Sequence record: NC_050154.1
Source: Escherichia phage D6
Length of the DNA: 64,000 bases
Reading direction: 5' to 3' (one strand)
In this document: piece after piece, positions 4,320-27,073 of the stretch
Position numbering within the stretch: the stretch's first letter is position 1
Layout: the number at the start of each line of letters is the position of its first letter
Made by a program: the position numbers and the translations under genes
Notes under the pieces: model-generated
The model's database searches: none
What the model was told of the DNA's origin: nothing
The model's input: the letters and a program-made list of their open reading frames with translations, nothing else

Positions 4320-4359
4320 ACCCCTCCAGAAATAACATCTAATGCGCCACTAACTTAGT

Positions 4360-4374
4360 CAGTTTGTTATTTCC
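4360..4374 (-). promoter_or_regulatory. candidate late-promoter box (GGAAATAACAAACTG on minus strand)
   Basis: One mismatch to the box seen at 10964 and 44949; upstream of the holin-like gene. Confidence 0.45.
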
Positions 4375-4424
4375 TTACAGGACATCTTCTAGAATCTCCC
4401 CCCTTAACATACAAGGGGGGACAT

Positions 4425-4985
4425 ATGCTTATTGGATACATTCGCGTATCAACTAATGACCAAAACACCGCTTTACAACGAAACGCCCTTGAAAGCGCAG
4501 GATGTGAGCTAATTTTTGAGGATAAGGCGAGCGGCAAAAAGGCTGAACGCCCAGGGTTAAAAAAGGTTCTGCGTATTCTTTCCAGAGGTGACACCCTGGT
4601 CGTATGGAAGTTAGATCGCCTTGGGCGCAGCATGCGTCACTTGGTTGTGCTGGTGGAAGAGCTGCGTGACAGAGGCATTAACTTCCGGAGTCTCACTGAC
4701 TCCATCGACACCAGTACACCAATGGGGCGCTTTTTCTTTCACGTAATGGGTGCGCTGGCAGAAATGGAACGTGAGCTTATCATTGAACGTACACGCGCTG
4801 GACTTGATGCAGCTCGCGCAGAAGGTCGTATAGGTGGGCGTCGGCCTAAATACCAAGAAGAAACATGGCAGCAAATGCGGCGATTGCTGGAGAAGGGCAT
4901 CCCTCGTAAGCAGGTTGCAATCATCTATGATGTGGCTGTTTCCACGCTTTATAAGAAGTTTCCGGCATCATCATTTCAATCCTAA
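4425..4985 (+). CDS. cin: serine DNA invertase, Cin/Gin/Hin/Pin family
   Basis: MLIGYIRVSTNDQNT...LVVWKLDRLGRS...GINFRSLTDSIDTS...IPRKQVAIIYDV; resolvase/invertase N-terminal catalytic motif and C-terminal HTH; AGGGGGG-type RBS. Confidence 0.95.
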   Translation: MLIGYIRVSTNDQNTALQRNALESAGCELIFEDKASGKKAERPGLKKVLRILSRGDTLVVWKLDRLGRSMRHLVVLVEELRDRGINFRSLTDSIDTSTPMGRFFFHVMGALAEMERELIIERTRAGLDAARAEGRIGGRRPKYQEETWQQMRRLLEKGIPRKQVAIIYDVAVSTLYKKFPASSFQS

Positions 4986-5003
4986 ACCTTGGTTTAAGAG
5001 AAC
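4978..5003. other. cix-type crossover site, left, overlapping the cin stop
   Basis: Imperfect 26-bp palindrome AATCCTAAACCTTGGTTTAAGAGAAC sharing ACCTTGGTTTAAGAGAA with the site at 9242. Confidence 0.7.
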
Positions 5004-5597
5004 TCGGTACCAGTGGTGAAAAGATCCCCCTGTTGAGTACGGCTAACACATGGAGTGCGCGCCAGACTTTCAATGGCGGGATCACCGGGGCGCTGATAGG
5101 GAACGCCGACACCGCGACGAAATTGAAAACAGCCATAAACATTAATGGCGTCAGGTTCGATGGTTCGGCTGACATTAATATCAATACTCTGGTATCGCGT
5201 GGTCGCGTAACGGCTCTGGGGGCGAATGCACAGGGGACATCCGGGATTCAGCTGTATGAGGCATACAACAATGGCTATCCTTCCCCCTATGGCAATGTGC
5301 TTCACCTTAAAGGTGCCACCGCTGCTGGCGAAGGTGAATTATTCATTGGCTGGAGTGTCTCGAGCGGTGACCATGCGCCCGTACATATCCGTTCGCGGCG
5401 TGATATTGATTCTGCCAACTGGTCTGAATGGGCACAGGTCTATACGTCAAAAGATTCAGTTCCCGGCGTTAATGCCAAAGGGAATCAGGATACCTCTGGT
5501 AATGCGGCTACAGCGACCAAATTGCAGACGGCGTGTACTATCAACGGTGTCTCGTTTGATGGTTCTAAAAACATTGAGCTAACGGCGGAAGATTTAA
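4997..5597. repeat. ~0.6 kb inverted repeat, left copy
   Basis: Encodes GTSGEKIPLLSTANTWSARQTFNGG...NIELTAEDLNL, near-identical to an internal segment of the 941-aa tail fiber on the opposite strand. Confidence 0.8.
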
Positions 5598-6553
5598 ATC
5601 TTGAGCAAACCGTAGAATTAGCCGCAGGAGCATTGCAGAAAAACCAGAACGGTGCAGATATTCCGAATAAAGATAAATTCATACAAAACACAGGGGCCTG
5701 TCGTGCATTTAGCGGTCAGACTGATATCGATGGTTCACAAGGTGAATGGTCGACAGTTGCATTTATCTCGTGGCTGGAGAATAACGGAGCTTTCCGACAT
5801 CCATACTGGATGTGTAAAGGGTCATGGTCCTATGCCAGAAACAGGGTTATTACGGATACCGGTTGTGGAAATATCTGCCTTGCCGGAGCCGTGATTGAGG
5901 TTATGGGAACCCGCGGCGCAATGACCATACGCGTTACCACGCCGAGCACGTCCAGCGGTGGCGGAATCACTAACGCTCAATTCACTTATATTAATCATGG
6001 TGATGCTTACGCTCCTGGCTGGCGACGAGACTACAACACGAAAAACCAGCAGCCTGCATTTGCTTTAGGGCAAACAGGACGCAGGGTCGCAAATGATAAA
6101 GCTGTTGGCTGGAACTGGAATAGCGGCGTTTATGATGCAGATATCAGTGGCGCATCGACATTAATCCTCCACTTTAATATGAATGCGGGGAGTTGCCCTG
6201 CTGTACAGTTCCGCGTGAATTACAGAAATGGCGGTATCTTTTATCGTTCAGCGCGTGATGGTTATGGCTTTGAAGCTAACTGGTCAGAGTTTTACACCAC
6301 AACACGCAAACCCTCTGCGGGAGATGTTGGTGCATATACGCAGGCAGAATGTAACTCAAGGTTTATTACAGGTATTCGCCTTGGCGGTCTGTCATCTGTT
6401 CAGACATGGAATGGTCCTGGCTGGTCTGACAGGTCAGGTTATGTCGTTACTGGTTCAGTTAACGGAAACCGTGATGAATTAATTGATACAACTCAGGCAA
6501 GGCCAATTCAGTATTGCATTAATGGAACGTGGTATAACGCGGGGAGTATTTAA
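5033..6553 (+). CDS. alternative tail-fiber variable C-terminal cassette (Sv'-type), silent in this orientation
   Basis: N-terminal ~190 aa equal the shared repeat, C-terminus diverges; no RBS or promoter of its own. Confidence 0.75.
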   Translation: MSTANTWSARQTFNGGITGALIGNADTATKLKTAININGVRFDGSADININTLVSRGRVTALGANAQGTSGIQLYEAYNNGYPSPYGNVLHLKGATAAGEGELFIGWSVSSGDHAPVHIRSRRDIDSANWSEWAQVYTSKDSVPGVNAKGNQDTSGNAATATKLQTACTINGVSFDGSKNIELTAEDLNLEQTVELAAGALQKNQNGADIPNKDKFIQNTGACRAFSGQTDIDGSQGEWSTVAFISWLENNGAFRHPYWMCKGSWSYARNRVITDTGCGNICLAGAVIEVMGTRGAMTIRVTTPSTSSGGGITNAQFTYINHGDAYAPGWRRDYNTKNQQPAFALGQTGRRVANDKAVGWNWNSGVYDADISGASTLILHFNMNAGSCPAVQFRVNYRNGGIFYRSARDGYGFEANWSEFYTTTRKPSAGDVGAYTQAECNSRFITGIRLGGLSSVQTWNGPGWSDRSGYVVTGSVNGNRDELIDTTQARPIQYCINGTWYNAGSI

Positions 6554-6555
6554 TT

Positions 6556-7089
6556 ATGATGCACTTAAAAAATATTACTGCTGGCAACCCTAAAACAAAA
6601 GAGCAATACCAGCTAACAAAGCAATTTAACATCAAATGGCTTTATTCAGATGATGGAAAAAACTGGTATGAGGAACAAAAGAATTTCCGGCCAGACACTT
6701 TGAAAATGGTCTATGACCATAACGGCGTTATTATTTGTATTGAAAAGGATGTTTCAGCAATTAATCCGGAAGGCGCAAGCGTCGTTGAATTACCTGATAT
6801 TACAGCAAATCGCCGGGCTGATATTTCGGGTAAATGGATGTTCAAAGATGGCGTAGTGATAAAGCGAACTTATACCGAGGAGGAACAGAGGCAGCAGGCA
6901 GAGAATGAAAAGCAAAGCCTGTTGCAACTTGTCAGGGATAAAACCCAGCTATGGGACTCACAGCTACGGCTGGGTATCATTTCCGACGAGAATAAACAAA
7001 AATTAACCGAGTGGATGCTCTATGCGCAGAAGGTCGAATCCACAGACACCTCCAGCCTGCCAGTAACGTTTCCAGAACAACCAGAATGA
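6556..7089 (+). CDS. tail fiber assembly chaperone, alternative copy (U-type)
   Basis: 177 aa, paralogous to the 176-aa ORF at 7118..7648 ([22 protein letters not shown]...ITANRRAD). Confidence 0.8.
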   Translation: MMHLKNITAGNPKTKEQYQLTKQFNIKWLYSDDGKNWYEEQKNFRPDTLKMVYDHNGVIICIEKDVSAINPEGASVVELPDITANRRADISGKWMFKDGVVIKRTYTEEEQRQQAENEKQSLLQLVRDKTQLWDSQLRLGIISDENKQKLTEWMLYAQKVESTDTSSLPVTFPEQPE

Positions 7090-7093
7090 AACA

Positions 7094-7110
7094 AGGCCCG
7101 CTATCGGGCC
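7094..7110. terminator. bidirectional hairpin between the two convergent chaperone genes
   Basis: GGCCCGCTATCGGGCC followed by a T-run. Confidence 0.6.
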
Positions 7111-7117
7111 TTAATTT

Positions 7118-7648
7118 TTATTCAGGCTTTTGTGGCCATTCAGGATTTGCCGTATCCACACGGCTGACCAGAACACTGTAGCGTTCCCATGACTCCAGTC
7201 GTGCGCGTTCCTCATCCGTCGCCATATTCAGTCTGACAGCGCGTTCCAGTGGCTGAATAACGTTTTCTGCTTCGGAAAGTAACGCGGCCTTTTGTGATTC
7301 GGCCTGTTGTTGTTGCTCGTCTGCCGTATAAATCCGTTTAACCACAGCTCCGTCCTTAAACATCCACTTCCCTGAATCATCGGCACGACGATTGGCTGTT
7401 ATATCTGGAATCTCAACGACGCTAAAGCCTTCGGGATTAAGCGTTGAGGCATCTTTGGTTATGGCAACAATAATATTATTTTCGTCGTATACAATCTTTA
7501 TGGTGTCGTCCTGAAAGTTATTTACTTCTTCATACCAGTTTTTACCGTCTTCGGACCATAACCAGATAACATCAAAATTCTTTGTTAGCTGATATTGTTC
7601 TTTCGTTTTAGGATTTCCAGACTTAATATTTTTTAAATGCTGCATCAT
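7118..7648 (-). CDS. tail fiber assembly chaperone (U'-type), expressed orientation
   Basis: 176 aa directly downstream of the tail fiber gene; paralog of 6556..7089. Confidence 0.8.
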
Positions 7649-10474
7649 TTACACCTGTGCGACGTTATACCATGTGCCATTGATGTATTTTTGTATTGGC
7701 CTGAAGATGGCTTCATCATCGCCATCTACTTCACCAATGATTCTTAATCCGGTAATTGCGTGTCCGGCTTTTTCATAACGACCACCACGCGCCATCAATT
7801 GAACAACACGTGTGCCAAGTCGGACATCTCTCACATAGCGTGAGTCAAAATTGCCATAATTGCCGGGAATAACTTGCGCACCACAAAGCCAGTTACCGTT
7901 ATTATCCATGTACGCCTGACCATCGGTGCCATTGGCTGTCCTTGAGTTATTAATCATGTAGATGCCAAATTGCTTGTTCCCCAGTCCACCTATCATGAAC
8001 TTTCGGTCGGCGTGATTCTGGCGAAGTAACGCCTGAGCGCTATCAGTGTTAACTATATTTTTCCCAAAGATAGCGTTGTTATCGCGCATCTGAATCCACA
8101 TACCATTACTGCTGTTAATAGCAAAACGGTCTGAAAGTGTCTCCCCTGAAACATTAAGACCACGTCCCATCGAAACAGCGCCAGTAGCGTTATTAATCCA
8201 TAATGGCCTTAATCCGTTATAAGTCCCCATGTTGTCACCGGAGTTTGTCAACATGAAGTATGTATTTGAACCATCATTACGAATAAAGAATCCGTAATTA
8301 CCATAAGCAATACGTAGGCCGTTTGCTGATTTTGATATGACTTCGCCATTTACAATGGCATTGACAAGAACATACAAAGCATCCCATTTAAGATTCATCA
8401 GGTCTTTTGTTGTGGTACTTTGTTTGCTTCTCCATTTGAAATATTCATTGCCGTTGTCGCCTGTCTCAAACCACATGTATGAATCAGTATCGCTGTCGGC
8501 ATCATTTTTAAAACCAATCTTCGCCCAGTCAGTATTCCGAATCCAGGCAAGGATTGAGTCGTTTTCAAAAGTAAGTCCACCGGACAAGGTATCGCCTGTC
8601 TTTTGAACCGCGTTATCAGCCTTGTTTACCGTTTCCTGTAGATTTAAATCTTCCGCCGTTAGCTCAATATTTTTAGAACCGTCAAACGAGACGCCGTTGA
8701 TAGTACATGCTATCTGCAATTTGGTCGCTGTAGCCGCATTACCAGAGGTGTCCTGATTCCCTTTGGCATTGACGCCGGGAACTGAATCTTTTGACGTATA
8801 GATCTGTGCCCACTCGGACCATGCCGCAGCAGTGCTATCTCTTTTGGATCGAATGAAAGCAGGTGCATGAGCGCCATTTGTGCCACTCCAGCCAATGAAT
8901 AACTCACCTTCGCCAGCAGCGGTGGCACCTTTAAGGTGAAGCACATTGCCATAGGGGGAAGGGTAGCCATTGTTGTATGCCTCATACATCTGCAATCCAG
9001 TAGCAGCACCTTGCGTTGTACCGGTAAGCGCAGTAACGCGTCCTCTAGACGTAATTGTTGGTATCGAAATGTTCGTAGAACCATCGAACCTGACGCCATT
9101 AATGTTTATGGCTGTTTTTAATTTCGTCGCGGTATCGGCGTTCCCTGTCAGCGCCCCGGTGATCCCGCCGTTGAAAGTCTGGCGTGCACTCCACGTGTTA
9201 GCCGTGCTCAACAGGGGGATCTTTTCACCGCTGGTACCGAGTTCTCTTAAACCAAGGTATTGGATAACGGCCAGTGTGCTTGTTTTAGCCAGAATATCGC
9301 GACCGACTGACGTTAAATCAGTCTGCGCTACCGTATCCTTACCGGTGAAATAAGGCAGTTTGTTTGCACCAGTCGCAAGGCCAGCGAGCGCGGTTAAAGT
9401 TGCATCCAGAGGCTGTTTGCCTGCCAGCGCATTTGTCATTGTTGTCGCAAAGTTCGGGTCATTACCAAGTGCTGCGGCAAGCTCATTCAGGGTATCAAGA
9501 GCTTCTGGTGATGAACCAACCAATGCGGATATGGCAGCTCTTACATAAGCGGTCGTAGCAATCTGCGTGTTATTCGTACCCTGTGCAGCGGTAGGCGCAG
9601 TAGGTATTCCCGTTAATGCAGGACTTGCTAAAGGAGCTTTAAGAGCCAGAGCATTGTTGATAGTTGTGCTGAAATTCGGGTCGTTATTGATCGCAGCCGC
9701 TATTTCTTTCAGCGTGTCCATCGTTCCCGGAGCACCATTGATAAGCGCATTTATAGCAGCATAGACAAAGGCCGCATTTGCGATCTGTGTGTTGTTTGTA
9801 CCGGGTTCAGGTGTCGGCGAAGTCGGCGTACCTGACAGATGCGGACTATCGAGCGGAGCTTTTGTATCAACCAAATCATGGAGAGTTTTGACAGCCAGAG
9901 GTGTAGCCGCTTTTCTTTCTTCTGTACTGCTTATTTCATTAGAGAATTCGACACCAACAGCACGGTTAACCCGGTATTTAAGCACAATCATTTCTTTAGT
10001 CACAGCCGTTGCGCCGTTAGGCACGATAACTCGACATAATTCAATTTGATTCTGCCCAATAGTATTGTCCGTACGCGCGTAAATTCTTGCAGCACTGACA
10101 GAAGATGCGCTATCTACCTGTGTCGTTTTTACACCATGTTCAAAATTGGCTTCCAGCACAATAATGTTGGTAGCCCCAGCCTTTACCGAGACAGTCACAT
10201 CTTCTATTTGCTGAACGGATATCTGAACATTATTTACATCTACTGAAGCAGCCCCTTTACCTTCTGAGTTTTCAGAAGTTATACGAACACTCAACCCTGT
10301 GCCGGGAACTGGTTCAAATCCACAGTAAAAGCCAGGCAAAACAATATTTTTAAGTTTTCTGTTAAGAGCCGAACTACTATAGAGTTCGAAATATTGAACA
10401 TCAGCAAGCAAAGGCTGTGAGACACCAGAGGATAGTGTCATTATGTTGTTCGTTTTATCAGCCCCCATAATCAA
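7649..10474 (-). CDS. tail fiber protein S (constant N-terminal part fused to the currently selected variable part)
   Basis: 941 aa; Gly/Ala/Thr-rich repeats; contains the inverted-repeat segment and the cix site mid-gene. Confidence 0.9.
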   Translation of the reverse strand: MIMGADKTNNIMTLSSGVSQPLLADVQYFELYSSSALNRKLKNIVLPGFYCGFEPVPGTGLSVRITSENSEGKGAASVDVNNVQISVQQIEDVTVSVKAGATNIIVLEANFEHGVKTTQVDSASSVSAARIYARTDNTIGQNQIELCRVIVPNGATAVTKEMIVLKYRVNRAVGVEFSNEISSTEERKAATPLAVKTLHDLVDTKAPLDSPHLSGTPTSPTPEPGTNNTQIANAAFVYAAINALINGAPGTMDTLKEIAAAINNDPNFSTTINNALALKAPLASPALTGIPTAPTAAQGTNNTQIATTAYVRAAISALVGSSPEALDTLNELAAALGNDPNFATTMTNALAGKQPLDATLTALAGLATGANKLPYFTGKDTVAQTDLTSVGRDILAKTSTLAVIQYLGLRELGTSGEKIPLLSTANTWSARQTFNGGITGALTGNADTATKLKTAININGVRFDGSTNISIPTITSRGRVTALTGTTQGAATGLQMYEAYNNGYPSPYGNVLHLKGATAAGEGELFIGWSGTNGAHAPAFIRSKRDSTAAAWSEWAQIYTSKDSVPGVNAKGNQDTSGNAATATKLQIACTINGVSFDGSKNIELTAEDLNLQETVNKADNAVQKTGDTLSGGLTFENDSILAWIRNTDWAKIGFKNDADSDTDSYMWFETGDNGNEYFKWRSKQSTTTKDLMNLKWDALYVLVNAIVNGEVISKSANGLRIAYGNYGFFIRNDGSNTYFMLTNSGDNMGTYNGLRPLWINNATGAVSMGRGLNVSGETLSDRFAINSSNGMWIQMRDNNAIFGKNIVNTDSAQALLRQNHADRKFMIGGLGNKQFGIYMINNSRTANGTDGQAYMDNNGNWLCGAQVIPGNYGNFDSRYVRDVRLGTRVVQLMARGGRYEKAGHAITGLRIIGEVDGDDEAIFRPIQKYINGTWYNVAQV
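8641..9250. repeat. ~0.6 kb inverted repeat, right copy
   Basis: Reverse complement of 4997..5597. Confidence 0.8.
9242..9267. other. cix-type crossover site, right, inside the tail fiber gene
   Basis: TTCTCTTAAACCAAGGTATTGGATAA; shares a half-site with the left site. Confidence 0.7.
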
Positions 10475-10917
10475 CCCTCAACTTGCTCGATTGTCATGAG
10501 AATACTGTAACGTTTACCTTTATAGAGGGTATCTTGCTGGGTGCAAAGCACACCAAAAGCCCGTTCCTCAGCATCAACAAGCACAAGCGTGTTAAAATCG
10601 TAAGGCGTGTTATCCGGCATTCTTTCTTGTGGGAAGGCTGCATTGATAGTGATAATCCCATCCACGCTGGACAATATCAGATCGGACACAGCAAACTGTT
10701 GAGCGTCACTCAATTTAAAATCGAGTGGAATGTCCGCTATATTCCAGCCTCCTGCACCATTAGCAGTTACCAGACTAGATTTGCACCAATACGCCTTAGA
10801 GATAACAAAACGCGCACCTTTGCCGATCGCCGACTCAGCGCGGCGTGAATAATAGTAGGAAAGCAATTGTGCCTTATACAGGCGGTTACCATCTCTTGCC
10901 TTTAAATTTTCAGCCAT
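10471..10917 (-). CDS. tail-fiber-associated protein (P1 R-like position)
   Basis: 148 aa immediately upstream of S with overlapping stop/start; AAGGAG RBS. Confidence 0.5.
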   Translation of the reverse strand: MAENLKARDGNRLYKAQLLSYYYSRRAESAIGKGARFVISKAYWCKSSLVTANGAGGWNIADIPLDFKLSDAQQFAVSDLILSSVDGIITINAAFPQERMPDNTPYDFNTLVLVDAEERAFGVLCTQQDTLYKGKRYSILMTIEQVEG

Positions 10918-10963
10918 ACGAACATAGCTCCTTCATAAGCAATGAACCAAAGGAGAGTATGCT

Positions 10964-10978
10964 CAGTTTGTGATTTCC
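10964..10978 (-). promoter_or_regulatory. candidate late-promoter box (GGAAATCACAAACTG on minus strand)
   Basis: About 45 bp upstream of the R-like start, followed by a CATACT -10-like hexamer. Confidence 0.5.
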
Positions 10979-11011
10979 GTTGTTCTTCCCCCAAATGCGG
11001 GGGAGGAATTA

Positions 11012-11857
11012 TTAAACAGGTTGAAGGTGGTAATCCAAAGGCCACGCATCGAGTGGGGTTACATCAAGATGTAATTGCTTTTCTGCCGTTCGGTTCGGTA
11101 TGGCGTTAAGAGAAATATTGTCTACCTGGCAGGAGGTATCACTACGGGATAGCATATCAGCCATACTCTCAGTAACATAAACACCTTCAATTACCGAAAC
11201 ATCCGTAGACAAGCAATTTAGTATTTCTGCCACTTCAGGGAATACAGCACTAAGCCGAAACGAGACGCCATCAAAAACAATATGCAATGGCAATAAAGGG
11301 GCTATTACTGTTTCGAAGTCAGATAACAATTTCTGTACAGCGGCTTCTTTATCCTGCTCTCCATATGAGCGATATAGCTTGTTCTGATCAACAACGACCA
11401 GCCCCCTTGATGTCAGGAAGAACTCACCGAATTGAGCCTGTGCCGTAGGTATTTCTATTTCGGTCGCAAAATATGAACCATAGGGGTGTTTTTCTATATT
11501 TACAGGTGCATACAGCGGTTCCCAACTAACAGGAATACAACCGAATTCACGCCAGAATGTCTGCTCAATTGGCAAGATAGTGCCTTTAAAGTGCACTTCA
11601 TCTAAACGTTGTGCCAGCAGCATTGGCCTACGAGCCTTATCTTTTTCAGTGATAACGAAAAAACGCCCGTATTCAGCAATGCGGGCATCCATGTCCTCAC
11701 TGTCCATAGTGAAGAAGGATTTTCTGTTACTTATTCTTGTTAATATTGGTTCTACTGCCTCATTCCAGACATCCTGTAAAGCGTCTATAAATGCACTCCA
11801 GAGATGTGAATCCTGTTTTACTTTAGTTAATCGTTCCTTAAGCCAATTATCTTTCAT
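11012..11857 (-). CDS. putative baseplate protein (P1 gene 16-like position)
   Basis: 281-aa ORF in the tail fiber/baseplate operon. Confidence 0.45.
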   Translation of the reverse strand: MKDNWLKERLTKVKQDSHLWSAFIDALQDVWNEAVEPILTRISNRKSFFTMDSEDMDARIAEYGRFFVITEKDKARRPMLLAQRLDEVHFKGTILPIEQTFWREFGCIPVSWEPLYAPVNIEKHPYGSYFATEIEIPTAQAQFGEFFLTSRGLVVVDQNKLYRSYGEQDKEAAVQKLLSDFETVIAPLLPLHIVFDGVSFRLSAVFPEVAEILNCLSTDVSVIEGVYVTESMADMLSRSDTSCQVDNISLNAIPNRTAEKQLHLDVTPLDAWPLDYHLQPV

Positions 11858-11867
11858 GCTAACCTCA

Positions 11868-13298
11868 TTACGGGTAAGAAATGCTGAACGTTGAAGATTT
11901 CACGTCAAGATAAATGAAGTCATTAAAGTAAACTGCATCTTTCATATTTTGTATTGTTATGTCATAAGAGAGAAACATATCCAGCGACTCTATTACTCGC
12001 CAAATATCTTTAACTTTTACCTGTGCATAACATTGCTGAGAATCATCATCACTCTGTAGTAATAAACTGAATGATGACGAATCACGACCAAAATTTTCTT
12101 CCAACGCTGCTTTAATAGCATTTTGAGCGTCGTCTATCAGAACATTTTTACGTGCAATACCTGTAAATTTTATAGTAAATGGTTGTTCATTTGTATCTAC
12201 ATACTCAAACCGCTTGTTCAACTCATTTGGAACATTCTCTAGAGCTTTCAGTATTTCTGATTTTAGCTGAGCCTGGCTTACACCTGGCTTATGTCCGCAA
12301 AAGAAAATCTTGTTGATGTTTCGAACGTCAAACCCAGTTATTTTCTCTTGCAACGCTTCGCCCCAAACGTTCAACCATGAAGTTCCATGAACAACATTCT
12401 GAATGAATTGGCGATAATCACCGCCCCATACCACTTGTTCATCGTATGCAACATAATACTGAGCACGATTTCGAGTTTCTTCTGTAGTTTCCATACCACT
12501 ACCACCGGTAATGATCGAATCAGTTTTAAACTCTAGTGACTCCACATATTGAGCGATATTTCCAGCCGGTTCTAACTTTTGTCCTTCAGCCAAAGTATAG
12601 TCGCCAAGGCTAGCCATAACATCGATTCGAACCTGACAGCCTGCTGGAGGCATCATACCCATAGAACCATCACCAAACTTGACTCCAAGTTGTTCTGTAG
12701 GTTTATATGCCAATGAATAGTGCTTACTCTTGTCTCTGGACATTCTAAATAATGGGTTATATGTCCATTTTTCTTCTACGCCATCTGTAATAACATAAAC
12801 ATCCAGGCTAGAGACTTCTTTTGTTAATTCTCTGGAAAGCAACAATGTCAGAAATAAAGTTTCCTTCTCAATATCAAATGTAACGCTAACAGCTTCATGC
12901 TGTTTAGTTTCTACGCCAGAAACAGTTCCTCCAGCAGGAATTACAACACTGTTAATAATTGCCAAAGGTGTTTGGTCATTGGCAAGCAATTCAGCCCCGG
13001 CTGGTAACGTAATATCCCGATCAGTTTTATTGGTTATAGACGTTGTTCCGTATGAAGCACTAACAAATCGCCCTACGTAGCTACGGTCTTCAGCAACCGC
13101 TAAAATACTTGAGCGGCGCGTAGCCGTTGAAATAAGTCCCTCAGTGAGGCCGCGGCTTGCAAATGTACGGGCAATATAAATAAGCTGTGATCCGAATATA
13201 GCGTGCATCTGCACAAACTGACTATTTACAAATCGTGACCACCATGTGTTTTCATTTAACTTGGCGTTAAATTTGTCCAGTAATTCTGTAATCGTCAC
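11868..13298 (-). CDS. putative baseplate protein (BplA-like position)
   Basis: 476-aa ORF, operon context. Confidence 0.45.
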   Translation of the reverse strand: MTITELLDKFNAKLNENTWWSRFVNSQFVQMHAIFGSQLIYIARTFASRGLTEGLISTATRRSSILAVAEDRSYVGRFVSASYGTTSITNKTDRDITLPAGAELLANDQTPLAIINSVVIPAGGTVSGVETKQHEAVSVTFDIEKETLFLTLLLSRELTKEVSSLDVYVITDGVEEKWTYNPLFRMSRDKSKHYSLAYKPTEQLGVKFGDGSMGMMPPAGCQVRIDVMASLGDYTLAEGQKLEPAGNIAQYVESLEFKTDSIITGGSGMETTEETRNRAQYYVAYDEQVVWGGDYRQFIQNVVHGTSWLNVWGEALQEKITGFDVRNINKIFFCGHKPGVSQAQLKSEILKALENVPNELNKRFEYVDTNEQPFTIKFTGIARKNVLIDDAQNAIKAALEENFGRDSSSFSLLLQSDDDSQQCYAQVKVKDIWRVIESLDMFLSYDITIQNMKDAVYFNDFIYLDVKSSTFSISYP

Positions 13299-13669
13299 GC
13301 GCCCACCCCACTTGATTTCTGCATAACAATATCCATGCTCCCACCTTTCGCATAAAAACTAATTAATAAAGAATCTTCAGAAATTGATGTGCAACGAATC
13401 CCCTGCACATCCAAACCTGGCAAGTCTTGTCGTAGTTTTTTCATCATTCTCCCTTCAATAGCCACTTCAACTATGTGCGAAGTTTCAGAGCCGAATGGTT
13501 CATGCTTAAATTCTTCCATTGGATTCCCCCAAGAGGGTAAACCATAAACACTCCCTTCAGGGGTTCGTAGCCACTCGTCAAGTCGGGCCATCCATGCTGC
13601 GGAACTTCCTTCTGCAATAATGACACCGCTCTCATTCGTTTGAAGTCTTGCGTCTATTTCATAAAGCAT
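13295..13669 (-). CDS. putative morphogenetic protein (PmgA-like position)
   Basis: 124 aa, coupled to neighbours. Confidence 0.45.
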   Translation of the reverse strand: MLYEIDARLQTNESGVIIAEGSSAAWMARLDEWLRTPEGSVYGLPSWGNPMEEFKHEPFGSETSHIVEVAIEGRMMKKLRQDLPGLDVQGIRCTSISEDSLLISFYAKGGSMDIVMQKSSGVGA

Positions 13670-13674
13670 CTTTA

Positions 13675-16600
13675 TTAATCCTCAAGCAGAGCATCCAGCG
13701 ACGGGTCATTAATAGTTGTGCTAGCACGTGGTCGCGGTTGCGGCTGCGATGTTTTGACAACCTTATCCGGATCGCCTTTTGTATTGTTCTTGTTCACATT
13801 CAGAAGATCGTTCAGGATAGAGCAGATGTTATCCAGCGCCTTCAACATAGCAGGATCGTTATTTATAGTGTCAGTAGTTAATGGTTGTCTTATTCCGCTT
13901 CGTGCGAGATCTGTTACAGTAGGAAGCTGTGGTGGCATAGCAAGAAAAGGTTCTTGCACGGCTGACGCAGAGCCAAATATGGCATTATTGGCTTCGTTTG
14001 ATATACCTCTAATGCTATCTGCGGTTTGTTGAATACCATTATTCAGCCAACTACCGGCGCTCCTGGTAAGCGGGCTAATAGCCCTAGCAATTGTTGAGTT
14101 CTGCCCAGTAGCCTGATAAACCAAATCATTAACAATGCCAGTGCCATCTACCCCACCAATAAGTCGTGAAACGTTATCGCCAATTGCAGGTAACACAGCA
14201 GAGCTAATACGTTTCAGACCTGTTAATGACGAGTCAAACAAAGAGCCAAGCACCCCCTTATCTTCACCATCAATTACCTTGTATCCATTGTCATAAACTG
14301 GAATCCCCCTTGAGTTTACAGGGATTTTTTCACTCTCACTTGCCGAAGAAACACCGGAAAGAAGATCCACTGAAGGCATATCGCGTTCAGCTTTTGGTCT
14401 TTTTTGTAAAGCGTCTCTTATATCAGTTACCTGGCTTGCTTTTTGAAATCCAAAAGATTTACCGGTTAAGCTGGATATCTTTTCAGTAAGAGCCTGATCC
14501 ATTCCTTTCGCTTTTTCGGAAAGCGAAGATATAGAACCAAACGAAGTCGCCGACGCAAAATCCTTAATCAGGCCAAGGCTTGTACCAGCAAGGCTGGTAG
14601 CCGCACCTCCAAATAAATTACCTACCCCGCTGTCATTTATAGCGATTAATCTCTCAAGCAGACTTGATGGAGAGCCAGTATTAACATCAACGTTCTCTGG
14701 ATTAATCGGTTGCGATTGATTGCCTGTTTTTTGTGGCTTTTTGACTGCCTGGGCATATTGTGCAACCTCAATTGGCTGTTGTGTTGCTGTCGGAACGGCA
14801 TTCAAAACTGGTTGAGCTGGAGATTTTCCATTAACATATTTTATCTTGCGACCAACACTATATTGCGAATCGCGGGCAATTAGCTGACCACCATTTTCTT
14901 TCTGAATTTTATTAATCCGCGCCAATGTTTCGTCAGAGAATTGTCCCTCCCATCGACCAGTATTTGTGTTAAATGCCCCAAGAGCATTCTTTATGAACTC
15001 ATTGTTAACCGCCGGGTTTCCACCTTCTTTCGTCGCTATTGCACGAACTAATTGCGTCATAACCTCTGGGTTGCTGACGTCTATTTTTTCATTAGGCGAG
15101 ACGCCAAGATATTTGCTGACGTTATCAATATATTGATTAGTATTGTTCTCCTTTGGGGGTGCCCATTTGGAAATAATACTGGATACCGTCTGTAGCTTCT
15201 GATACCCAGCAGCGGCGCTGGTGCCGTTGTAATAGCTTGACACCTGGTTTGCCAGCGCCCTGATCCCTTCTTCAGGCGTGTTAAATCGCGCAAAACGTTG
15301 TTCACCTTTTGCATTTGGTGCTTCCAGCGTCGCCCCTTCCTGATTAGCGAAAACAAGGTTGCCGAGATTATTATTCCGGTAATTGCGGTTTTTGGCGTTG
15401 CTGCCACCAATATTCAGATCCGCTGCAATGGTGTTGCTGGTAGGGGCATTAAATTCAGCCGGGGAAGTATACCCGTGCTCACCAACACCATCTTCACCAT
15501 CACGCCCGCCTTGTAGCTGCTCACCTAAAGAATGAATCGCATCGACAGTTTTTTTGGTGCCGTCTTCAACAGCTTTTTTTACTTGTTTTGTGTTTTCGTC
15601 AGTGGATAAAAATGTATCCTTAAGGCTACCAAAAACAGATTTTGTGATATCTACCGCGCCGTTAACACCACGAGCAATATCTCCGGTATCAAAATTCTGA
15701 AGTTTTTCACCTGCTCTTTCAAATCCTAGCGCAGAAATTCCTTTCCCTATCAAGTTTGTTGCGCCCGACACCAAGCCCCCCATATCGAGCACATTAGCTG
15801 TTGCGTAAGCCGTTTTTTGCTGTTCGGATACAGCATCATCGTCACTTAAACCAAAGGCTGCCTTTTGCGCCTCTGTATCTGTGTAACCATCTATGGCGTC
15901 ATATCCAGCCATTGCCAGCGAACCGATGATAGGGACCGCTCTTGCCGCAGTGGATGCTGCTGATTTAACTCCTATTTTTGCAGCACTTTTGAGGGCTACA
16001 GATTCAGTTTTTTTCTTTGCAATGGCTTCGCCGGTTTTAATGGTGGCATCTTCAGCCACAACACCAGCTGACTTCACGGCCTTAGCAGTATTTTTTGTTT
16101 CCTTTGCAATCCCCTTTGATGTATCGCTGATAGTGCTTACATCTTTGGGTTTGCTGATCTCATTTTTAACTACTTTTGCTGCTCCGACACCAGTGCCAGC
16201 TGCAGCGCTACCGGCAGCAACTTTTTCGCCAACGGAGAGTGCTTTTTTCCCAAGATTGCGGCCTTTCCTTTTCGATTTATTCCGTTTATTTTTTCCCGTT
16301 TGATCACCAATATTGATTTTATTTCTTCTGCTTGCTCGATTTTTCCAGAGATCACTTAAGCCGAACTTATTTCCAGAAGACACTGATTTCCGAAGCTTAA
16401 CTATCTCGTCAGAAACATTTTCCAGACCATCAATTATTTTGTTGTCATTGGTCTGAAGGATTTTGGTTTGCTCTTCTACTGCTTGTGCGGATTTTGTCTC
16501 AACAGCGTTATTGAACGCTTTTGCAGATGTTGCTTTTTGAGAATTCACCGCCGCCGGATAAGTAATTACTGGTGATATCGCTTTCGAGGTTGATGTTTCT

Positions 16601-17457
16601 TTTTTCCCCTTTTCTACCCATTCTTTAAGAGATTCTGCTTTACCTGTGATCTCTTTAGTTATGTCGTACATGCCTCGAGCCGCCATCCATAACGGCCCAC
16701 CAGCACCGACACCAGCTGCATTTGTTAAAGACTCTTCACTGGAAGACTGATTGCCATCTACCCCCATAATGGAACCTAGCTTTCTGAGAAAGCCAGCTTG
16801 TAATTTTGCGTCGGCTTTACGTGCGTTCTGCAATTCTTTTTTTCTGGCTATATCCTCATTGCTTTTTTGGGATACAAAACGTCCATTACTATCCCGCAGC
16901 GGGCCTTTTAGACTTTGGGGGGATTGTGGTTCAAGAGGGGCTGAATTAGCCGCTACCGGTATAAAACCGTCCGATTTTCGGATGGTCTGACGTGATTGCA
17001 CGGAGCGAACACTTTCTGGTGTGTTCGTTGCAACGATAGCGCGGTCCACGGTTTGGTTTATCGGTGCCCTTTCCTTTTTAGCAGGGAGACGTTTTTTATA
17101 TGGGTTAGTTTGGGCATCTCTAACGCTATCAGATGTACTTTGCTCGTAGTCTTTACGCCTGCGTGATAGTCTGTTGCTAACTCTGCCTTGCTTTTCGTCC
17201 TGTTGAGTTATGGTGCCTACCCCAGAAAGAATGGCGTCTTTTACCTCAGCAAGAGCTTTAAGTTCGTTTGTGCTCGCCTCCTGAATAGCGTCAATTATTG
17301 CGATACGGTCTTTATTCTCTTTCAAAATAACCTCTCTTTTACCAGCGCGATCAACGTTTCCCGGCTTGAGCTTTGTATTTTTCTTCCAGGGCTTTTGACA
17401 TATGGAGTGCTCGCCATTGCGGTAATTGTTCAACGTCGCTAACGGGCTGATATCCAT
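13675..17457 (-). CDS. large structural/injection protein, Sit-like (tape-measure-like)
   Basis: 1260 aa, low-complexity Ala/Gly/Ser/Lys-rich, with a globular domain near residues 630-760. Confidence 0.65.
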   Translation of the reverse strand: MDISPLATLNNYRNGEHSICQKPWKKNTKLKPGNVDRAGKREVILKENKDRIAIIDAIQEASTNELKALAEVKDAILSGVGTITQQDEKQGRVSNRLSRRRKDYEQSTSDSVRDAQTNPYKKRLPAKKERAPINQTVDRAIVATNTPESVRSVQSRQTIRKSDGFIPVAANSAPLEPQSPQSLKGPLRDSNGRFVSQKSNEDIARKKELQNARKADAKLQAGFLRKLGSIMGVDGNQSSSEESLTNAAGVGAGGPLWMAARGMYDITKEITGKAESLKEWVEKGKKETSTSKAISPVITYPAAVNSQKATSAKAFNNAVETKSAQAVEEQTKILQTNDNKIIDGLENVSDEIVKLRKSVSSGNKFGLSDLWKNRASRRNKINIGDQTGKNKRNKSKRKGRNLGKKALSVGEKVAAGSAAAGTGVGAAKVVKNEISKPKDVSTISDTSKGIAKETKNTAKAVKSAGVVAEDATIKTGEAIAKKKTESVALKSAAKIGVKSAASTAARAVPIIGSLAMAGYDAIDGYTDTEAQKAAFGLSDDDAVSEQQKTAYATANVLDMGGLVSGATNLIGKGISALGFERAGEKLQNFDTGDIARGVNGAVDITKSVFGSLKDTFLSTDENTKQVKKAVEDGTKKTVDAIHSLGEQLQGGRDGEDGVGEHGYTSPAEFNAPTSNTIAADLNIGGSNAKNRNYRNNNLGNLVFANQEGATLEAPNAKGEQRFARFNTPEEGIRALANQVSSYYNGTSAAAGYQKLQTVSSIISKWAPPKENNTNQYIDNVSKYLGVSPNEKIDVSNPEVMTQLVRAIATKEGGNPAVNNEFIKNALGAFNTNTGRWEGQFSDETLARINKIQKENGGQLIARDSQYSVGRKIKYVNGKSPAQPVLNAVPTATQQPIEVAQYAQAVKKPQKTGNQSQPINPENVDVNTGSPSSLLERLIAINDSGVGNLFGGAATSLAGTSLGLIKDFASATSFGSISSLSEKAKGMDQALTEKISSLTGKSFGFQKASQVTDIRDALQKRPKAERDMPSVDLLSGVSSASESEKIPVNSRGIPVYDNGYKVIDGEDKGVLGSLFDSSLTGLKRISSAVLPAIGDNVSRLIGGVDGTGIVNDLVYQATGQNSTIARAISPLTRSAGSWLNNGIQQTADSIRGISNEANNAIFGSASAVQEPFLAMPPQLPTVTDLARSGIRQPLTTDTINNDPAMLKALDNICSILNDLLNVNKNNTKGDPDKVVKTSQPQPRPRASTTINDPSLDALLED

Positions 17458-17471
17458 ATAGAGTCAGGTTG

Positions 17472-18293
17472 TTAATAATGGTTAGCCATCCATTCAGATC
17501 TAATTGATGGGATAAACTCTCTATTGAGAAAGGGGACGTACAGTGTGGTTGTCACATCTGCACCCTCCTTAGCGTTTTTGCAATGTTGCGGAGGCAGGAT
17601 CAGTCGGCTTGTGCCTCTCTCAATAGACATTTTCAGGCCGTGGCGTAGGTCTTTTTGCATAAGCTGTATGCGAGCCACAAGCGGAGTAAATTCGGTTTCA
17701 AGCGCCATGCTTTCAATGATGTCAAAGCGTCGGTTAGCGGCCTGCGTGAAGTCCTCCGGATCGTCTTCAAGCGCCGTGCATAAAGCGAGTTCAGCAATTC
17801 GCATCCGTGCCACGCCAGCACTGTATTCGGGGCTTTTCATATCAGGAAGTGACGCTCGCATTCGTTCAAGGAGTTCCGCGCCTTTCCCGGTTAATGGTTT
17901 AAGTATCCAGTCAGTTGGTATTCCATTTACTGGTACGTTGGTTTTCACGTAAGGAGGTACAGTGAGTATTTCTACTGTTTGGGCCAGGTCGCTCAGGTTA
18001 ATATCTGCATGATGCGTATTACCGCAGTGACTGCACTCATAGGAGTAGGTCATTACTGCATCGGGGCGCGAATTAACAAATATCCACCAAAGAGCAGTTC
18101 TGCGATCCTGAACTGTCCAGTTAGCACTGTCGTTAATTTCACCATCCTGCATAGAGTTAAGGTACTCTGTAGTAGTTGCCTCATCTTCTGCCGGGTTCAG
18201 GTCAGAATATTTCAGCGCATCCTTCACGGTAGGGGCGTGGAACTGAATTTCTGTCTCAGGACGGGAAGGCAATGGGAATTTTGGAATGTTCAA
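17472..18293 (-). CDS. putative morphogenetic protein (PmgB-like position)
   Basis: 273 aa, first gene of the operon. Confidence 0.45.
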   Translation of the reverse strand: MNIPKFPLPSRPETEIQFHAPTVKDALKYSDLNPAEDEATTTEYLNSMQDGEINDSANWTVQDRRTALWWIFVNSRPDAVMTYSYECSHCGNTHHADINLSDLAQTVEILTVPPYVKTNVPVNGIPTDWILKPLTGKGAELLERMRASLPDMKSPEYSAGVARMRIAELALCTALEDDPEDFTQAANRRFDIIESMALETEFTPLVARIQLMQKDLRHGLKMSIERGTSRLILPPQHCKNAKEGADVTTTLYVPFLNREFIPSIRSEWMANHY

Positions 18294-18339
18294 TTATTCC
18301 TCCGAAAAGCAGGTATCTGTTCATTTTCCAGAGGATAGG

Positions 18340-18355
18340 GAGTGTGTGATTTGCG
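18340..18355 (-). promoter_or_regulatory. candidate late-promoter box (CGCAAATCACACACTC on minus strand)
   Basis: Upstream of the pmgB-like start; same AAATCACA core. Confidence 0.45.
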
Positions 18356-18398
18356 ATGGGGATTGAATGAAGATCTTTGCCGGTCGAGAAGCGATTAT

Positions 18399-18660
18399 TG
18401 AGGGTGATTTTTACACCTTAAGTGACGCTACTCACATATCCACAGAGTATTTTTATAAACCTTTTTCCATTTTTAATCCTTTTTAGATCCTTTTTAGGCG
18501 TCGCTGGAGCCAGTAGTGGCGCGGGCTGTAGAGGAGGCTGGTGTAAGATTTGCCCTCAATTAAATACGATCGGTGTAAGATTTGCCCTCAAAAGGTGTAA
18601 GATTTGCCCTCAAAAGGTGTAGTAATTGCCCTCAAAGTGATGTAAAAATTGCCCTCACCA
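18399..18660. other. origin-like region: inverted iteron, DnaA-box-like TATCCACAG (~18437), AT-rich stretch, five direct iterons
   Basis: Read directly; classic iteron-plasmid origin layout upstream of the rep gene. Confidence 0.65.
18540..18657 (+). repeat. iteron array, 5 direct copies of GGTGTAAGATTTGCCCTCA (last two degenerate), mostly 22-23 bp spacing
   Basis: Copies begin near 18540, 18572, 18594, 18616, 18639. Confidence 0.85.
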
Positions 18661-18681
18661 TTTGAAGGATCACACAGGGTT

Positions 18682-19437
18682 ATGAACAGAGCGGAATTAA
18701 CAGCAAAAGCCGTCAGCCTGATTGAGTCAGCGACACCTATTAGTCGTAGTTTGGCACAAGCCAATGAGATCACGGAGGCTGCTTATCACCTGACTCGCGA
18801 CCAAAAGCGACTGTTGTTTATTGTGGTGGGAAGACTTCGCTATGCTTCTAAGGATGGCGTTCTTGGTTCAGGTGCCTGTGAGTTGACGGTCAACGAATAT
18901 GCAGAGATGTATAATTTGCCCTCTGCTGAAGCCAGCAAGGATATTCGTAAGGCCATTTCAGGTCTTAGCGAGAAGAAAGTTACGATATATAACCCTGATG
19001 AATCGACCGAATCAGAAGACAGTTATGAGTCTTATCCTTGGATGATTAAGGATGCCTATTCACCACGGCGCGGGACTTACATTATTCATCTTAATCCATA
19101 TCTCATGCCGTTTTTTACTCTGCTTGATAAGAGATTCACAAGGCTGAATTTTACCGAAGTATCTCGCCTTACAAATCCTTATTCTATGCGGCTTTATGAG
19201 TCCTTATGCCAGTACAGGAAGGATGATGGAAGCGGCTTTGCCATACTTGGCGTCGAATGGATGCGGGAGCGTTATGGGTTACCAAAAAGCTATCAGCGGT
19301 ATGCCGAATTTAAGAGAAGTTTTTTAACGAAGGCTGTAGCAGAGATTGAAAAAAATACAAAAATGAAAATAGTCTTCTCAGAGGTGACGGAAGGCGGCAA
19401 AGTTACCAGGATAAAATTTACCTATCAGCAGTCTTAA
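18682..19437 (+). CDS. iteron-binding replication initiator, Rep_3-like
   Basis: ANEITEAAYHLTRDQKRLLFIVVGRL N-terminal signature; flanked by iterons; start moved to the ATG at 18682 because the track start lies inside an iteron. Confidence 0.8.
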   Translation: MNRAELTAKAVSLIESATPISRSLAQANEITEAAYHLTRDQKRLLFIVVGRLRYASKDGVLGSGACELTVNEYAEMYNLPSAEASKDIRKAISGLSEKKVTIYNPDESTESEDSYESYPWMIKDAYSPRRGTYIIHLNPYLMPFFTLLDKRFTRLNFTEVSRLTNPYSMRLYESLCQYRKDDGSGFAILGVEWMRERYGLPKSYQRYAEFKRSFLTKAVAEIEKNTKMKIVFSEVTEGGKVTRIKFTYQQS

Positions 19438-19770
19438 GGGCAATTTTTACACCCTTCTCAAGGTGTAGAATTTGCCCTTAACGATCGGCAATTGAGGGCA
19501 ATTTTTACATCTTAATTGCATGTATCTTGTTATTAGCAAGTTGTGTTTTTATATAACGTATTGATATATAAGGGTTATGTAAAAATCACCCTCAACCAAT
19601 ATCGTGCGTATCGTGCATTCTTATTGCGCTTTTTTATTATCATTCACTGTGTTAACTGATTGATATTATTGAAATGTGTAAAGAATGCCTTCATTACAGA
19701 TGAATTGATGATGTAAAAAATGCCCTCAAAATTGCGCTACCTTCCCTACCCGCTATCGTTGAGGGCGTGG
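19437..19770. repeat. downstream iteron-like copies in both orientations within AT-rich DNA (inc-type control region)
   Basis: AGGGCAATTTTTACACC, GGTGTAGAATTTGCCCTTA, TGAGGGCAATTTTTACATC, GATGTAAAAAATGCCCTCA. Confidence 0.6.
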
Positions 19771-19818
19771 GTGCTGACGGGAAATGAGCAACCCTCCAGC
19801 ACACATAATTAAAGCGCT

Positions 19819-20526
19819 TCAGAATTTAATCACTCCACTCACAGCTCCCTTTAACGCACTTGTAGCCATGCCTGCGGCACCGTTGACCAAAGCAGAAACA
19901 CCTGAGCCTGCGGATGTGTATTTCTGGAAAGTGATTGGGTATGACAAGAACTCTGACACCTGATCACGTGAGCGAGTGATTTCCCCAAGTTGTGTAGGAA
20001 ATACGCGCATTTCTTCTTCCAGTTCTTTTCCGCCGTCCTGAGTTACCCGGTAGACACGGATTTTCATCAGATATTCCGGAGGAAGGTTTATTGTTCCATC
20101 AGGATTTGTTACACGAGAACGACGCTCTTTGAACCAGTCCATGATCTTGCCATCTTCGGTATCCCTCACGGTCATAGTGACCGGTCCGGCGCTAACATAG
20201 GTTGGCTTGCTGAATTCTACGCTGCCGATCACCTTGCTTTCTGTCTCGATGTTCCCACTGCTGTAGGTGATATCCTTCACGAACATATCGAAGCCGTTCA
20301 GACCATCCACTTCAACGGTCCACTGCCACCCCTGGGCGTAACGGATACGCATAGCGGCAGCAACAATATTTTTCCCGTAGGCAATATCGCTACTGTAATT
20401 CCCGCTTACCCCGCCGCCTGATATGGCTTTATCAAGAATGTCGCTAATGAGGTTGCTGGTGAATGATTTCGTGTTAAATGACAATGCGGTGGTCAACGTT
20501 CTACCAACGCTGCTGAAAATACTCAC
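19819..20526 (-). CDS. hypothetical virion structural protein
   Basis: 235-aa ORF, last gene of the minus-strand structural operon. Confidence 0.5.
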   Translation of the reverse strand: MSIFSSVGRTLTTALSFNTKSFTSNLISDILDKAISGGGVSGNYSSDIAYGKNIVAAAMRIRYAQGWQWTVEVDGLNGFDMFVKDITYSSGNIETESKVIGSVEFSKPTYVSAGPVTMTVRDTEDGKIMDWFKERRSRVTNPDGTINLPPEYLMKIRVYRVTQDGGKELEEEMRVFPTQLGEITRSRDQVSEFLSYPITFQKYTSAGSGVSALVNGAAGMATSALKGAVSGVIKF

Positions 20527-20541
20527 TCTGCGCCTCCAGCG

Positions 20542-21093
20542 TTAAAAAATGGTAGCCCCCGGAATAATGGCCCGGTTTGAGGACATTTTTTCCTCAATCT
20601 CCTGCACGCGGGCATATAGCGTGGCTTCATCGGGCAGATCGGAGTAGTCAAATTTCCCGTCGATGGATGCTCTACGCTGCCGGGCGACATTTCTTACGTT
20701 GATAAGCGCCTCCAGATATTCCTCCAGCATTCCAATGATTGCAGGAGGCACTTGCCATTCATCCAGCTTTCTGTCGCGTAGATTAACCAGATACAGCATT
20801 CGAAAAGGCCAGCGTTCTGAACCTGTTAGCTCTAATTCAATAAAGCCGGATAATTCATCCGAATAGACCAACAGGCCGTTGTTGTCGGTAACATGAACCA
20901 GAGAGAGATAATCTTCTGGCAACGGGATTGCAGTACCACCAGCTCTTTCAAGTTTTAACGTTTTCACTACCCCTGCCCTGTCCTGATACGTGGTCAGAGC
21001 TTTGATCAGGAATGCTTTCAACGTTTCTTCTTCACGCACAAGCAGCGGATTAAATCGCTCTTTAACGCTTTCTAATAATTCAATTGGTGTCAT
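20542..21093 (-). CDS. hypothetical virion structural protein
   Basis: 183-aa ORF, operon context. Confidence 0.5.
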   Translation of the reverse strand: MTPIELLESVKERFNPLLVREEETLKAFLIKALTTYQDRAGVVKTLKLERAGGTAIPLPEDYLSLVHVTDNNGLLVYSDELSGFIELELTGSERWPFRMLYLVNLRDRKLDEWQVPPAIIGMLEEYLEALINVRNVARQRRASIDGKFDYSDLPDEATLYARVQEIEEKMSSNRAIIPGATIF

Positions 21094-21147
21094 TGTTGCC
21101 TACAACTCAATAACAAGGATGTTCCCGCCACAAGGGCGGGATAGGGA

Positions 21148-21639
21148 TTATTCCGCCCAGTTGTAAACAATGCGCAGGGAAGGTTTAACGACCGCCGTTA
21201 CGTCTTCGGATGAGAAGTCCACGGCGTCGGAATACACTTTGCAATGAGAATATGTGCGGATCAGACCTTTATGGTTACCGCTATTCGATTCAGCCGCCGC
21301 CTGTAAGGTAATTTCCAGATATTCTTTTCCGTATACCATCTGTTTTACAGCGGCGAGAACTGCGCCTTCGATAGTTTCCGCGCATGTGACCTGAAATTCA
21401 CCAGAGTTGCGTAATGGTCCGTGCTGGTTGAATTTCATGCCACCAGGGGCGTAATCCTCCACATCTTCACGTGTCATTTCTGGTAACTGAGCTGTACGAA
21501 CTAGTACAGACAGATGTTCGTAACCCTTAATGGTCATCCAATATTCAGAACCAATAAGTTTTTCGCCTGCAGCCAGGTTTTTATTAAACCGGGATTTTAG
21601 AAAGGCCATATCGGCTTTTGTATTTGCAAAACCGGACAT
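21148..21639 (-). CDS. hypothetical tail protein
   Basis: 163-aa ORF, operon context. Confidence 0.45.
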   Translation of the reverse strand: MSGFANTKADMAFLKSRFNKNLAAGEKLIGSEYWMTIKGYEHLSVLVRTAQLPEMTREDVEDYAPGGMKFNQHGPLRNSGEFQVTCAETIEGAVLAAVKQMVYGKEYLEITLQAAAESNSGNHKGLIRTYSHCKVYSDAVDFSSEDVTAVVKPSLRIVYNWAE

Positions 21640-21647
21640 AAATACTC

Positions 21648-22238: not shown

Positions 22239-22287
22239 ACGCTATTTCTCCCAGGTAGAGGCCACCTTTGCAGGCGGCCTGTGTCAC

Positions 22288-23028: not shown

Positions 23029-23065
23029 ACCTCTCTCCCCCGCATCATTTAGCGGGGGTTATAAA

Positions 23066-24724: not shown

Positions 24725-24791
24725 GCTGGTTCTTATCCTCTAAAGCGAGAGAACGAGGCAAGGCTACCCACGGTTAATGGGCAGCCTCTGA

Positions 24792-25070
24792 TCAGGATTC
24801 GCTTACCGTGAAGTTGTCGCCTACGGTTACTTCTTTCGTAGTTGGTTCAACACTGACGGCGCTTACGCTTTTAGGTGCCTCCCTAACAGTGACTGTGCAC
24901 TGTGCGGTTTTATTGCCGTCATTTGTTTTGATTGTCAGCACTGCCTGCCCGGCCTTAAGAGCGGTACATGTAGTGCCATCAACCTGGACAATTTCAGGGT
25001 GATCTGACTCAACAGTGAAAGATTTGTCTGTTGCGTCAGATGGCGTGATAGTTACTTGAATGTTTGCCAT
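24792..25070 (-). CDS. Ig-like domain protein (decoration/accessory)
   Basis: 92 aa, Thr/Val-rich beta-strand pattern. Confidence 0.45.
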   Translation of the reverse strand: MANIQVTITPSDATDKSFTVESDHPEIVQVDGTTCTALKAGQAVLTIKTNDGNKTAQCTVTVREAPKSVSAVSVEPTTKEVTVGDNFTVSES

Positions 25071-27067: not shown

Positions 27068-27073
27068 AGAGTT

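Follow-up and report, generated by a model that had tools for sequence, protein, structure and literature searches.

Since the early 1980s, the Cin/C-segment switch has served as a textbook example. The systems of the Din family, such as Hin/hix of Salmonella, Pin of e14, and Min of p15B, combine a serine invertase with 26-bp sites that carry a 2-bp core and with a Fis-dependent enhancer, and Pin and Min likewise switch tail-fibre genes. Phage particles P1(S) and P1(S') were shown to differ in their hosts and receptors; the P1 S fibre directs infection of Escherichia coli K-12 and C, and its receptor is the glucose of the lipopolysaccharide (LPS) outer core (bioRxiv 10.1101/2022.07.24.501295). 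In Escherichia phage D6 and D6-like elements, a “tail fiber gene inversion region” that comprises cin, gpR, gpS, gpU, gpU', and gpS' has been described (PMC6799933). The D6 genome was deposited as MF356679 (PMC6799933), and the genome together with its tail-fibre inversion region is cited there as already published by Gilcrease and Casjens (2018).

Here, a stretch of 64,000 nt of phage D6 (NC_050154.1), referred to below as the window, was analysed with respect to the 4.3-kb region that adjoins cin. We assign a probability of about 95% to the reading that this region is a Cin-dependent invertible C-segment, which serves as a site-specific switch of tail-fibre specificity in a P1-related plasmid prophage. 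The D6 switch is intact, active, and ordinary; as a published C-segment feature of a sequenced phage it was already known, and it adds no new biology. The additions made here are modest, namely that a public assembly contains both isomers and places their crossover at cix, and that the repeat arms are unusually diverged.

Organization of the invertible segment

A first-pass annotation of the window had placed cin beside a segment of ~4.3 kb with two cix-type 26-bp sites and inverted repeats of ~0.6 kb, and all of these elements were found in place. The cixL site (4977–5002, plus strand) has the form CAATCCTAAACC-TT-GGTTTAAGAGAA, with the core TT at 4989–4990. The cixR site (9242–9267, minus strand) has the reverse complement TTATCCAATACC-TT-GGTTTAAGAGAA, with the core appearing as AA at 9254–9255 on the plus strand. 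The two sites are inverted relative to each other, share the same 2-bp core TT, and are each identical to the annotated P1 site over 31 nt. Between the core dinucleotides, the C-segment (4990–9254) measures 4265 bp, compared with 4256 bp in P1, and the two segments align colinearly at ~91% identity. In a megablast search of phage records, the P1 record matched window positions 4423–9877, from the start of cin to the inside of Sc, the constant part of the fibre gene, colinearly and in one piece at 90.9% DNA identity. Further cix sites were not detected in the 64-kb window, where no other sequence exceeded 17 of 26 matches, the level reached by shuffled sequence. A multiple-inversion system of the Min type was ruled out, as the window holds no extra cix-like sites above chance.

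The cin gene (4425–4985, plus strand) encodes a serine DNA invertase of 186 aa with the Pfam domains Resolvase (E 5e-51) and HTH_7; both the catalytic and the C-terminal helix-turn-helix domain are intact. The protein is 97.8% identical to P1 Cin and retains Ser9 (MLIGYIRVS). Its stop codon TAA (4983–4985) is located inside cixL and outside the crossover point; therefore, inversion leaves cin unaltered. An open reading frame (ORF) on the minus strand that overlaps cin (4367–4633) was treated as spurious.

The ORF listing contained a plus-strand ORF at 5033–6553 and a long minus-strand fibre ORF at 7649–10474. The latter had been reported as a fibre of 941 aa, a count that begins at a mechanically chosen TTG. 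The start of S is most likely the ATG at 10468, which is located 2 nt past the stop codon of R and is preceded by GAGGG; it gives a protein of 939 aa, exactly the length of the deposited D6 protein. The expressed tail-fibre gene S (7649–10468, minus strand) carries a Gp34_trimer domain, and its product exactly matched ASR76338.1/YP_009914712.1, deposited under “Escherichia phage D6” as “long tail fiber protein.” It consists of the constant part Sc (9255–10468, minus strand), located outside the segment, and the variable part Sv (7649–9254, minus strand), located within it. Next comes U (7118–7648, minus strand), which encodes the 176-aa assembly chaperone for S and is expressed in the sequenced orientation (Pfam Caudo_TAP, E 2.4e-37; 96% identical to U of P1 and 98% to U of Mu). 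The present orientation thus has the arrangement that had been claimed for it, in which the fibre ends in one variable cassette, with the Sv tip, followed by the chaperone encoded at 7118.

The other half of the segment is occupied by Sv' (4990–6553, plus strand), an alternative 3' end of the fibre gene in the form of a cassette that has no promoter and is silent in the sequenced orientation, and by U' (6556–7089, plus strand), which encodes the 177-aa assembly chaperone for S' (Caudo_TAP, E 1.5e-36; 95% identical to U' of P1 and 97% to U' of Mu). The chaperones U and U' are 56% identical to each other. The two cassettes are convergent, and a predicted bidirectional terminator hairpin (7093–7112), terminator-like on both strands and conserved in P1, lies between U' and U. 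In the protein look-up, exact matches deposited for D6 were also obtained for U (ASR76337.1), U' (ASR76336.1), and the 506-aa ORF of Sv' (ASR76335.1).

Inversion was simulated between the cix cores of the window sequence. As had been expected, the inversion joined Sc to Sv' in the same reading frame, with U' behind it, and did not change cin. Counted from the TTG, the simulated S' had 927 aa; counted from the probable start codon, the ATG at 10468, it had 925 aa. Both S and the simulated S' were open up to a stop codon, and each was followed by its own chaperone. The first-pass annotation had described this product as the constant part joined to a cassette beginning at 5033, with the chaperone encoded at 6556; the fusion holds, whereas the start at 5033 is an artefact. 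The TTG at this position lies within the repeat; the Sv' cassette lacks its own start, and its reading frame is already open at the crossover point. Independent expression of Sv' from this TTG was rejected as well: no promoter-like site above chance was found upstream of it, and its frame differs from that of cin. For annotation, the practical consequence is that the 506-aa “tail fiber protein” represents a promoterless cassette rather than a gene with its own start.

The inverted-repeat arms extend over 4979–5614 (left arm, plus strand), which encodes the proximal shared part of Sv', and 8627–9265 (right arm, minus strand), which encodes the proximal part of Sv. Repeat finding gave an outer pair of 198 nt (4979–5176/9068–9265, 93%) and an inner pair of 366 nt (5249–5614/8627–8992, 86%). 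Gapped alignment merged them into a single arm pair of ~636 nt (~0.64 kb) with a poorly conserved, barely alignable patch of ~70 nt, and the complementarity of the arms was far above chance expectation. However, the D6 arms are only ~85% identical to each other (~90 differing positions), compared with 98–99% in P1 and three other relatives. The left arm is ~94.5% identical to either P1 arm, whereas the right arm reaches only ~87% and represents a distinct allele, related forms of which occur at 93–97% identity in other, P1-like plasmids. Because of this divergence, S and S' differ at 30 residues within their “shared” part.

Both isomers in natural sequences

A 925-aa “phage tail fiber” of Salmonella Oranienburg (SUH68578.1) agreed with the simulated S' at every residue. 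The genes for S and S' lie together on contig UGXZ01000001.1 (127,471 bp; assembly GCA_900456605.1), and their starts are 91,159 bp apart, a distance that we take to be the length of the D6 genome. This spacing indicates that the contig is an over-unit-length assembly of a circular plasmid (~1.4 unit lengths). The first copy showed 0 mismatches to window positions 1–20468, and the second copy showed 0 mismatches over 18,475 nt to the window inverted in silico. The overlapping copies thus carry the C-segment in opposite orientations, and Oranienburg is the serovar in which D6 was discovered. The same two copies also differ by small indels, which split darA into three ORFs in one of them (217, 185, and 64 aa versus 645 aa) and are probably assembly errors.

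Isomers of this kind could have another origin, namely homologous recombination that depends on RecA and uses the 0.64-kb inverted repeats, instead of Cin action at cix, as long inverted repeats could in principle support inversion. For D6, we consider this explanation very improbable. The arms are only 85% identical, yet the natural isomer is a cix-core inversion with 0 mismatches. The arms are identical over 4986–5013, a stretch of 28 bp that includes the cix core, although they differ at ~90 positions elsewhere. Since the arms differ outside this stretch and the inverted copy nevertheless has no mismatch, the natural crossover is confined to these 28 bp; recombination at any other point of the arms would have produced chimeras of the two. 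The mapping excludes general homologous recombination within the arms. It also follows that identity of the arms is not needed, given that inversion occurs despite their divergence. Thus, both of the orientations that the first-pass annotation had proposed to look for were present in one public assembly, and their breakpoint falls within 28 bp that include the cix core; the Oranienburg assembly shows that the D6 switch is active and that crossing over takes place at cix despite a repeat divergence of 15%.

Opposite orientations were also found among related plasmids. The S. Thompson plasmids CP092511 and NZ_CP092628 (92,361 bp) differ solely by an inversion between the cix sites, with 99.93% identity in reverse and identical flanks. 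This pair is consistent with a crossover at cix, but its near-identical arms do not allow the crossover point to be placed. Among the PLSDB plasmids, 62 records contained the cin–Sv' junction and 30 the cin–Sv junction (coverage of at least 80%). In addition, the annotation of NZ_CP122833, a P1-like plasmid of E. coli, shows the opposite orientation, and its S' is full-length.

A recombinational enhancer (sis) was predicted within the 5' part of cin (4443–4514) on the basis of its homology with P1: it shares 68 of 72 nt with the element annotated in P1 as “enhancer of Cin-mediated C-segment inversion,” and the D6 sequence presumably acts in the same capacity. The sequence upstream of cin is unrelated to that of P1. 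Directly 5' of the cin ATG, a 9-bp GC-rich hairpin, CCCCCCUUA...AAGGGGGG, was observed at 4397–4421 (−16.7 kcal/mol, z = −2.35). The hairpin, which is absent from P1, overlaps the likely ribosome-binding site of cin, would sequester the probable Shine–Dalgarno sequence, and could hold Cin levels low.

These features are relevant to a further alternative, according to which the segment is a frozen relic with intact anatomy, in which either Cin or the enhancer has lost its function in D6. Such a relic could be read from the four substitutions in Cin relative to P1 (V6I, E12D, M51I, and V119I), from the 4 changes in the 72 nt of the enhancer, and from the GC hairpin over the likely ribosome-binding site. 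However, all four substitutions are conservative, the exact Cin protein is itself deposited and was found on 326 contigs in the protein look-up, and a Cin with 98.9% identity to that of D6 occurs in the S. Thompson plasmids, which are known in both orientations. Most directly, one assembly holds both isomers of exactly the D6 sequence. We regard the relic as extremely improbable and retain the reading of an active, Cin-dependent switch. The contrary findings that the first-pass annotation had envisaged, the occurrence of just one orientation or a cin without activity, were not obtained, as both isomers of this very sequence occur in one assembly.

Fibre expression and predicted receptors

The gene R (10471–10917, minus strand) is the first gene of the R–S–U operon, and its product is 45% identical to R of P1; the family PF26881 (Phage_P1_tail_fiber_R) is recorded on the identical R gene in the GCA_900456605.1 contig copy. 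A late promoter in front of R probably drives this minus-strand operon, and a candidate was located at 10956–10978 (minus strand), where the box GGAAATCACAAACTGA is followed by CATACT. The 16-nt box, GGAAATmACAAACTGA, had 6 matches compared with 1.3 expected, and in 4 of them a −10-like hexamer was located 1–2 nt further on. These copies, all on the minus strand, are at 4359–4374 (TAAGTT), 10963–10978 (CATACT), 29746–29761 (GACAAT), and 44948–44963 (CATAAT), and all four sit in gaps upstream of minus-strand genes or operons. The box differs in sequence from the P1 late promoters and is probably the late-promoter element of the D6 lineage.

A mechanism can be proposed on this basis. Late transcription of R–S–U would start outside the segment, run through Sc, cross cixR, read whichever cassette faces it together with the chaperone gene of that cassette, and end at the central bidirectional terminator. 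In the sequenced orientation, it would yield S (939 aa), with a tip like that of P1 S, together with the chaperone U. Cin would pair cixL with cixR, exchange strands at the 2-bp core, and flip the 4265-bp segment, presumably assisted by host Fis bound to the enhancer in cin, by homology with P1. After the flip, the in-frame fusion of Sc and Sv' would yield S' (925 aa), with a tip like that of Mu S', followed by U'. Because the segment flips, a population of lysogens would be expected to release mixed particles with two receptor specificities.

The unique tip parts comprise 325 aa in Sv and 312–313 aa in Sv'. When the variable C-termini were compared with known receptor-binding domains, as the first-pass annotation had suggested, they gave distinct matches. 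The Sv tip, which contains the Gp34_trimer domain, matched the structure of Mu S (5YVQ, E 1e-189) and shared 98% identity with the tip of P1 S and 88% with that of Mu. The Sv' tip (312 aa unique) matched the structure of Mu S' (8JU3, E 2e-193) and was 86% identical to its P1 counterpart and 88% to that of Mu. The earlier statement that the two variable regions are unrelated outside the repeat is correct only approximately, as their last ~70 aa can be aligned at 38% identity (E 1e-7). A 40-nt inverted match between 6500–6539 and 7663–7702 was considered as an inner recombination site and rejected; it corresponds instead to the conserved C-terminal coding end of both tips.

There are good grounds to suppose that D6 alternates between two receptor specificities, since the literature on P1 gives its two fibres different hosts. 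By analogy, the receptors would be the outer-core glucose of LPS for S and O-antigen-containing LPS for S'. Several points weigh against the reading of a Cin-dependent switch of tail-fibre specificity. The Sv' tip is just 86–89% identical to the S' tips of P1 and Mu, so its specificity may differ, and receptors are assigned to the D6 fibres by homology alone. The upstream region of cin is unlike that of P1; therefore, the regulation of cin may differ. In addition, the over-length contig shows both isomers in sequenced DNA and not their ratio. The S' fibre of D6 may bind an O-antigen or LPS other than that bound by P1(S'), for example one found on Salmonella. If true, such a divergent S' receptor would let D6 alternate between E. 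coli and Salmonella hosts. With respect to applications, knowledge of the switch is useful where D6- or P1-type particles are to be tailored to deliver cargo to different hosts.

Elsewhere in the window, Rfam models identified a C4 antisense RNA (76 bits) and isrK (59 bits) adjacent to each other at 48074–48161 and 48206–48284 on the minus strand. This pair is an immI immunity region of the P1/P7 type. No tRNA genes were found in the 64-kb window.

Comparison with known systems

The D6 backbone at window positions 9300–30000 is 98.5–99.2% identical to ~90-kb plasmids of Salmonella and E. coli, including pYU39_89 (CP011430). Positions 10400–30000 had no blastn or megablast match in a collection of 50,697 phage records, from which D6 itself is evidently absent. 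The 1260-aa protein encoded at 13675–17457 showed only ~40% protein identity to P1-group phages, over its transglycosylase domain.

The D6-like plasmid prophage pYU39_89 of Salmonella Typhimurium ST213 shares a 99% identical backbone, the same cin, and the same flanking R and Sc with D6, and its cix sites are nearly identical to those of D6, with one base differing in the inner half-site. Its segment, however, is only ~2.5 kb long and carries unrelated fibre tips (also PMC6799933). The comparison covered pYU39_89 positions 52500–66000. Similarity is lost at 5002, where cixL ends on its inner side, and returns at 9242, the corresponding edge of cixR; therefore, the cassette as a whole has been exchanged at the two cix boundaries. 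To judge from the alignment offsets, Sc of pYU39_89 contains one additional 222-nt repeat unit. The diverged arms of D6, together with this replacement at the cix boundaries, could reflect intermolecular exchange of cassettes by Cin between co-resident elements rather than homologous recombination. It seems rather doubtful that a D6-specific S' receptor and the arm divergence with cassette exchange through intermolecular Cin recombination are both meaningful, although we offer this joint reading tentatively.

Compared with the C-segment of P1, the D6 region has the same gene order, identical 26-bp cix sites, the predicted enhancer at the same position, and inverted repeats of the same size (~0.64 kb). 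It differs from P1 in lying on the D6 backbone, in an R that is only 45% identical, and in the unrelated sequence upstream of cin. The constant part Sc is shorter in D6, where S has 939 aa compared with 987 aa in P1. Moreover, the repeat arms are 85% alike in D6 and 98% alike in P1, and the Sv' tip is 86% identical between the two.

The similarity to the Gin/G-segment of Mu is concentrated in the inner part of the segment. There, ~3 kb with the tips and chaperones have ~90% DNA identity, and the U and U' proteins are 97–98% identical; in the megablast search of phage records, the inner 3 kb matched the G-segments of Mu and D108 at 90–93%. In contrast, Gin is only 77% identical to D6 Cin, and the constant part Sc of Mu is unrelated and much shorter. 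Mu has no 0.6-kb repeats, and its repeats are 34 bp long. Within the Din family, Hin differs from the D6 system in that it switches a flagellin promoter and not the 3' end of a gene, and Min has six crossover sites compared with the two cix sites of D6.

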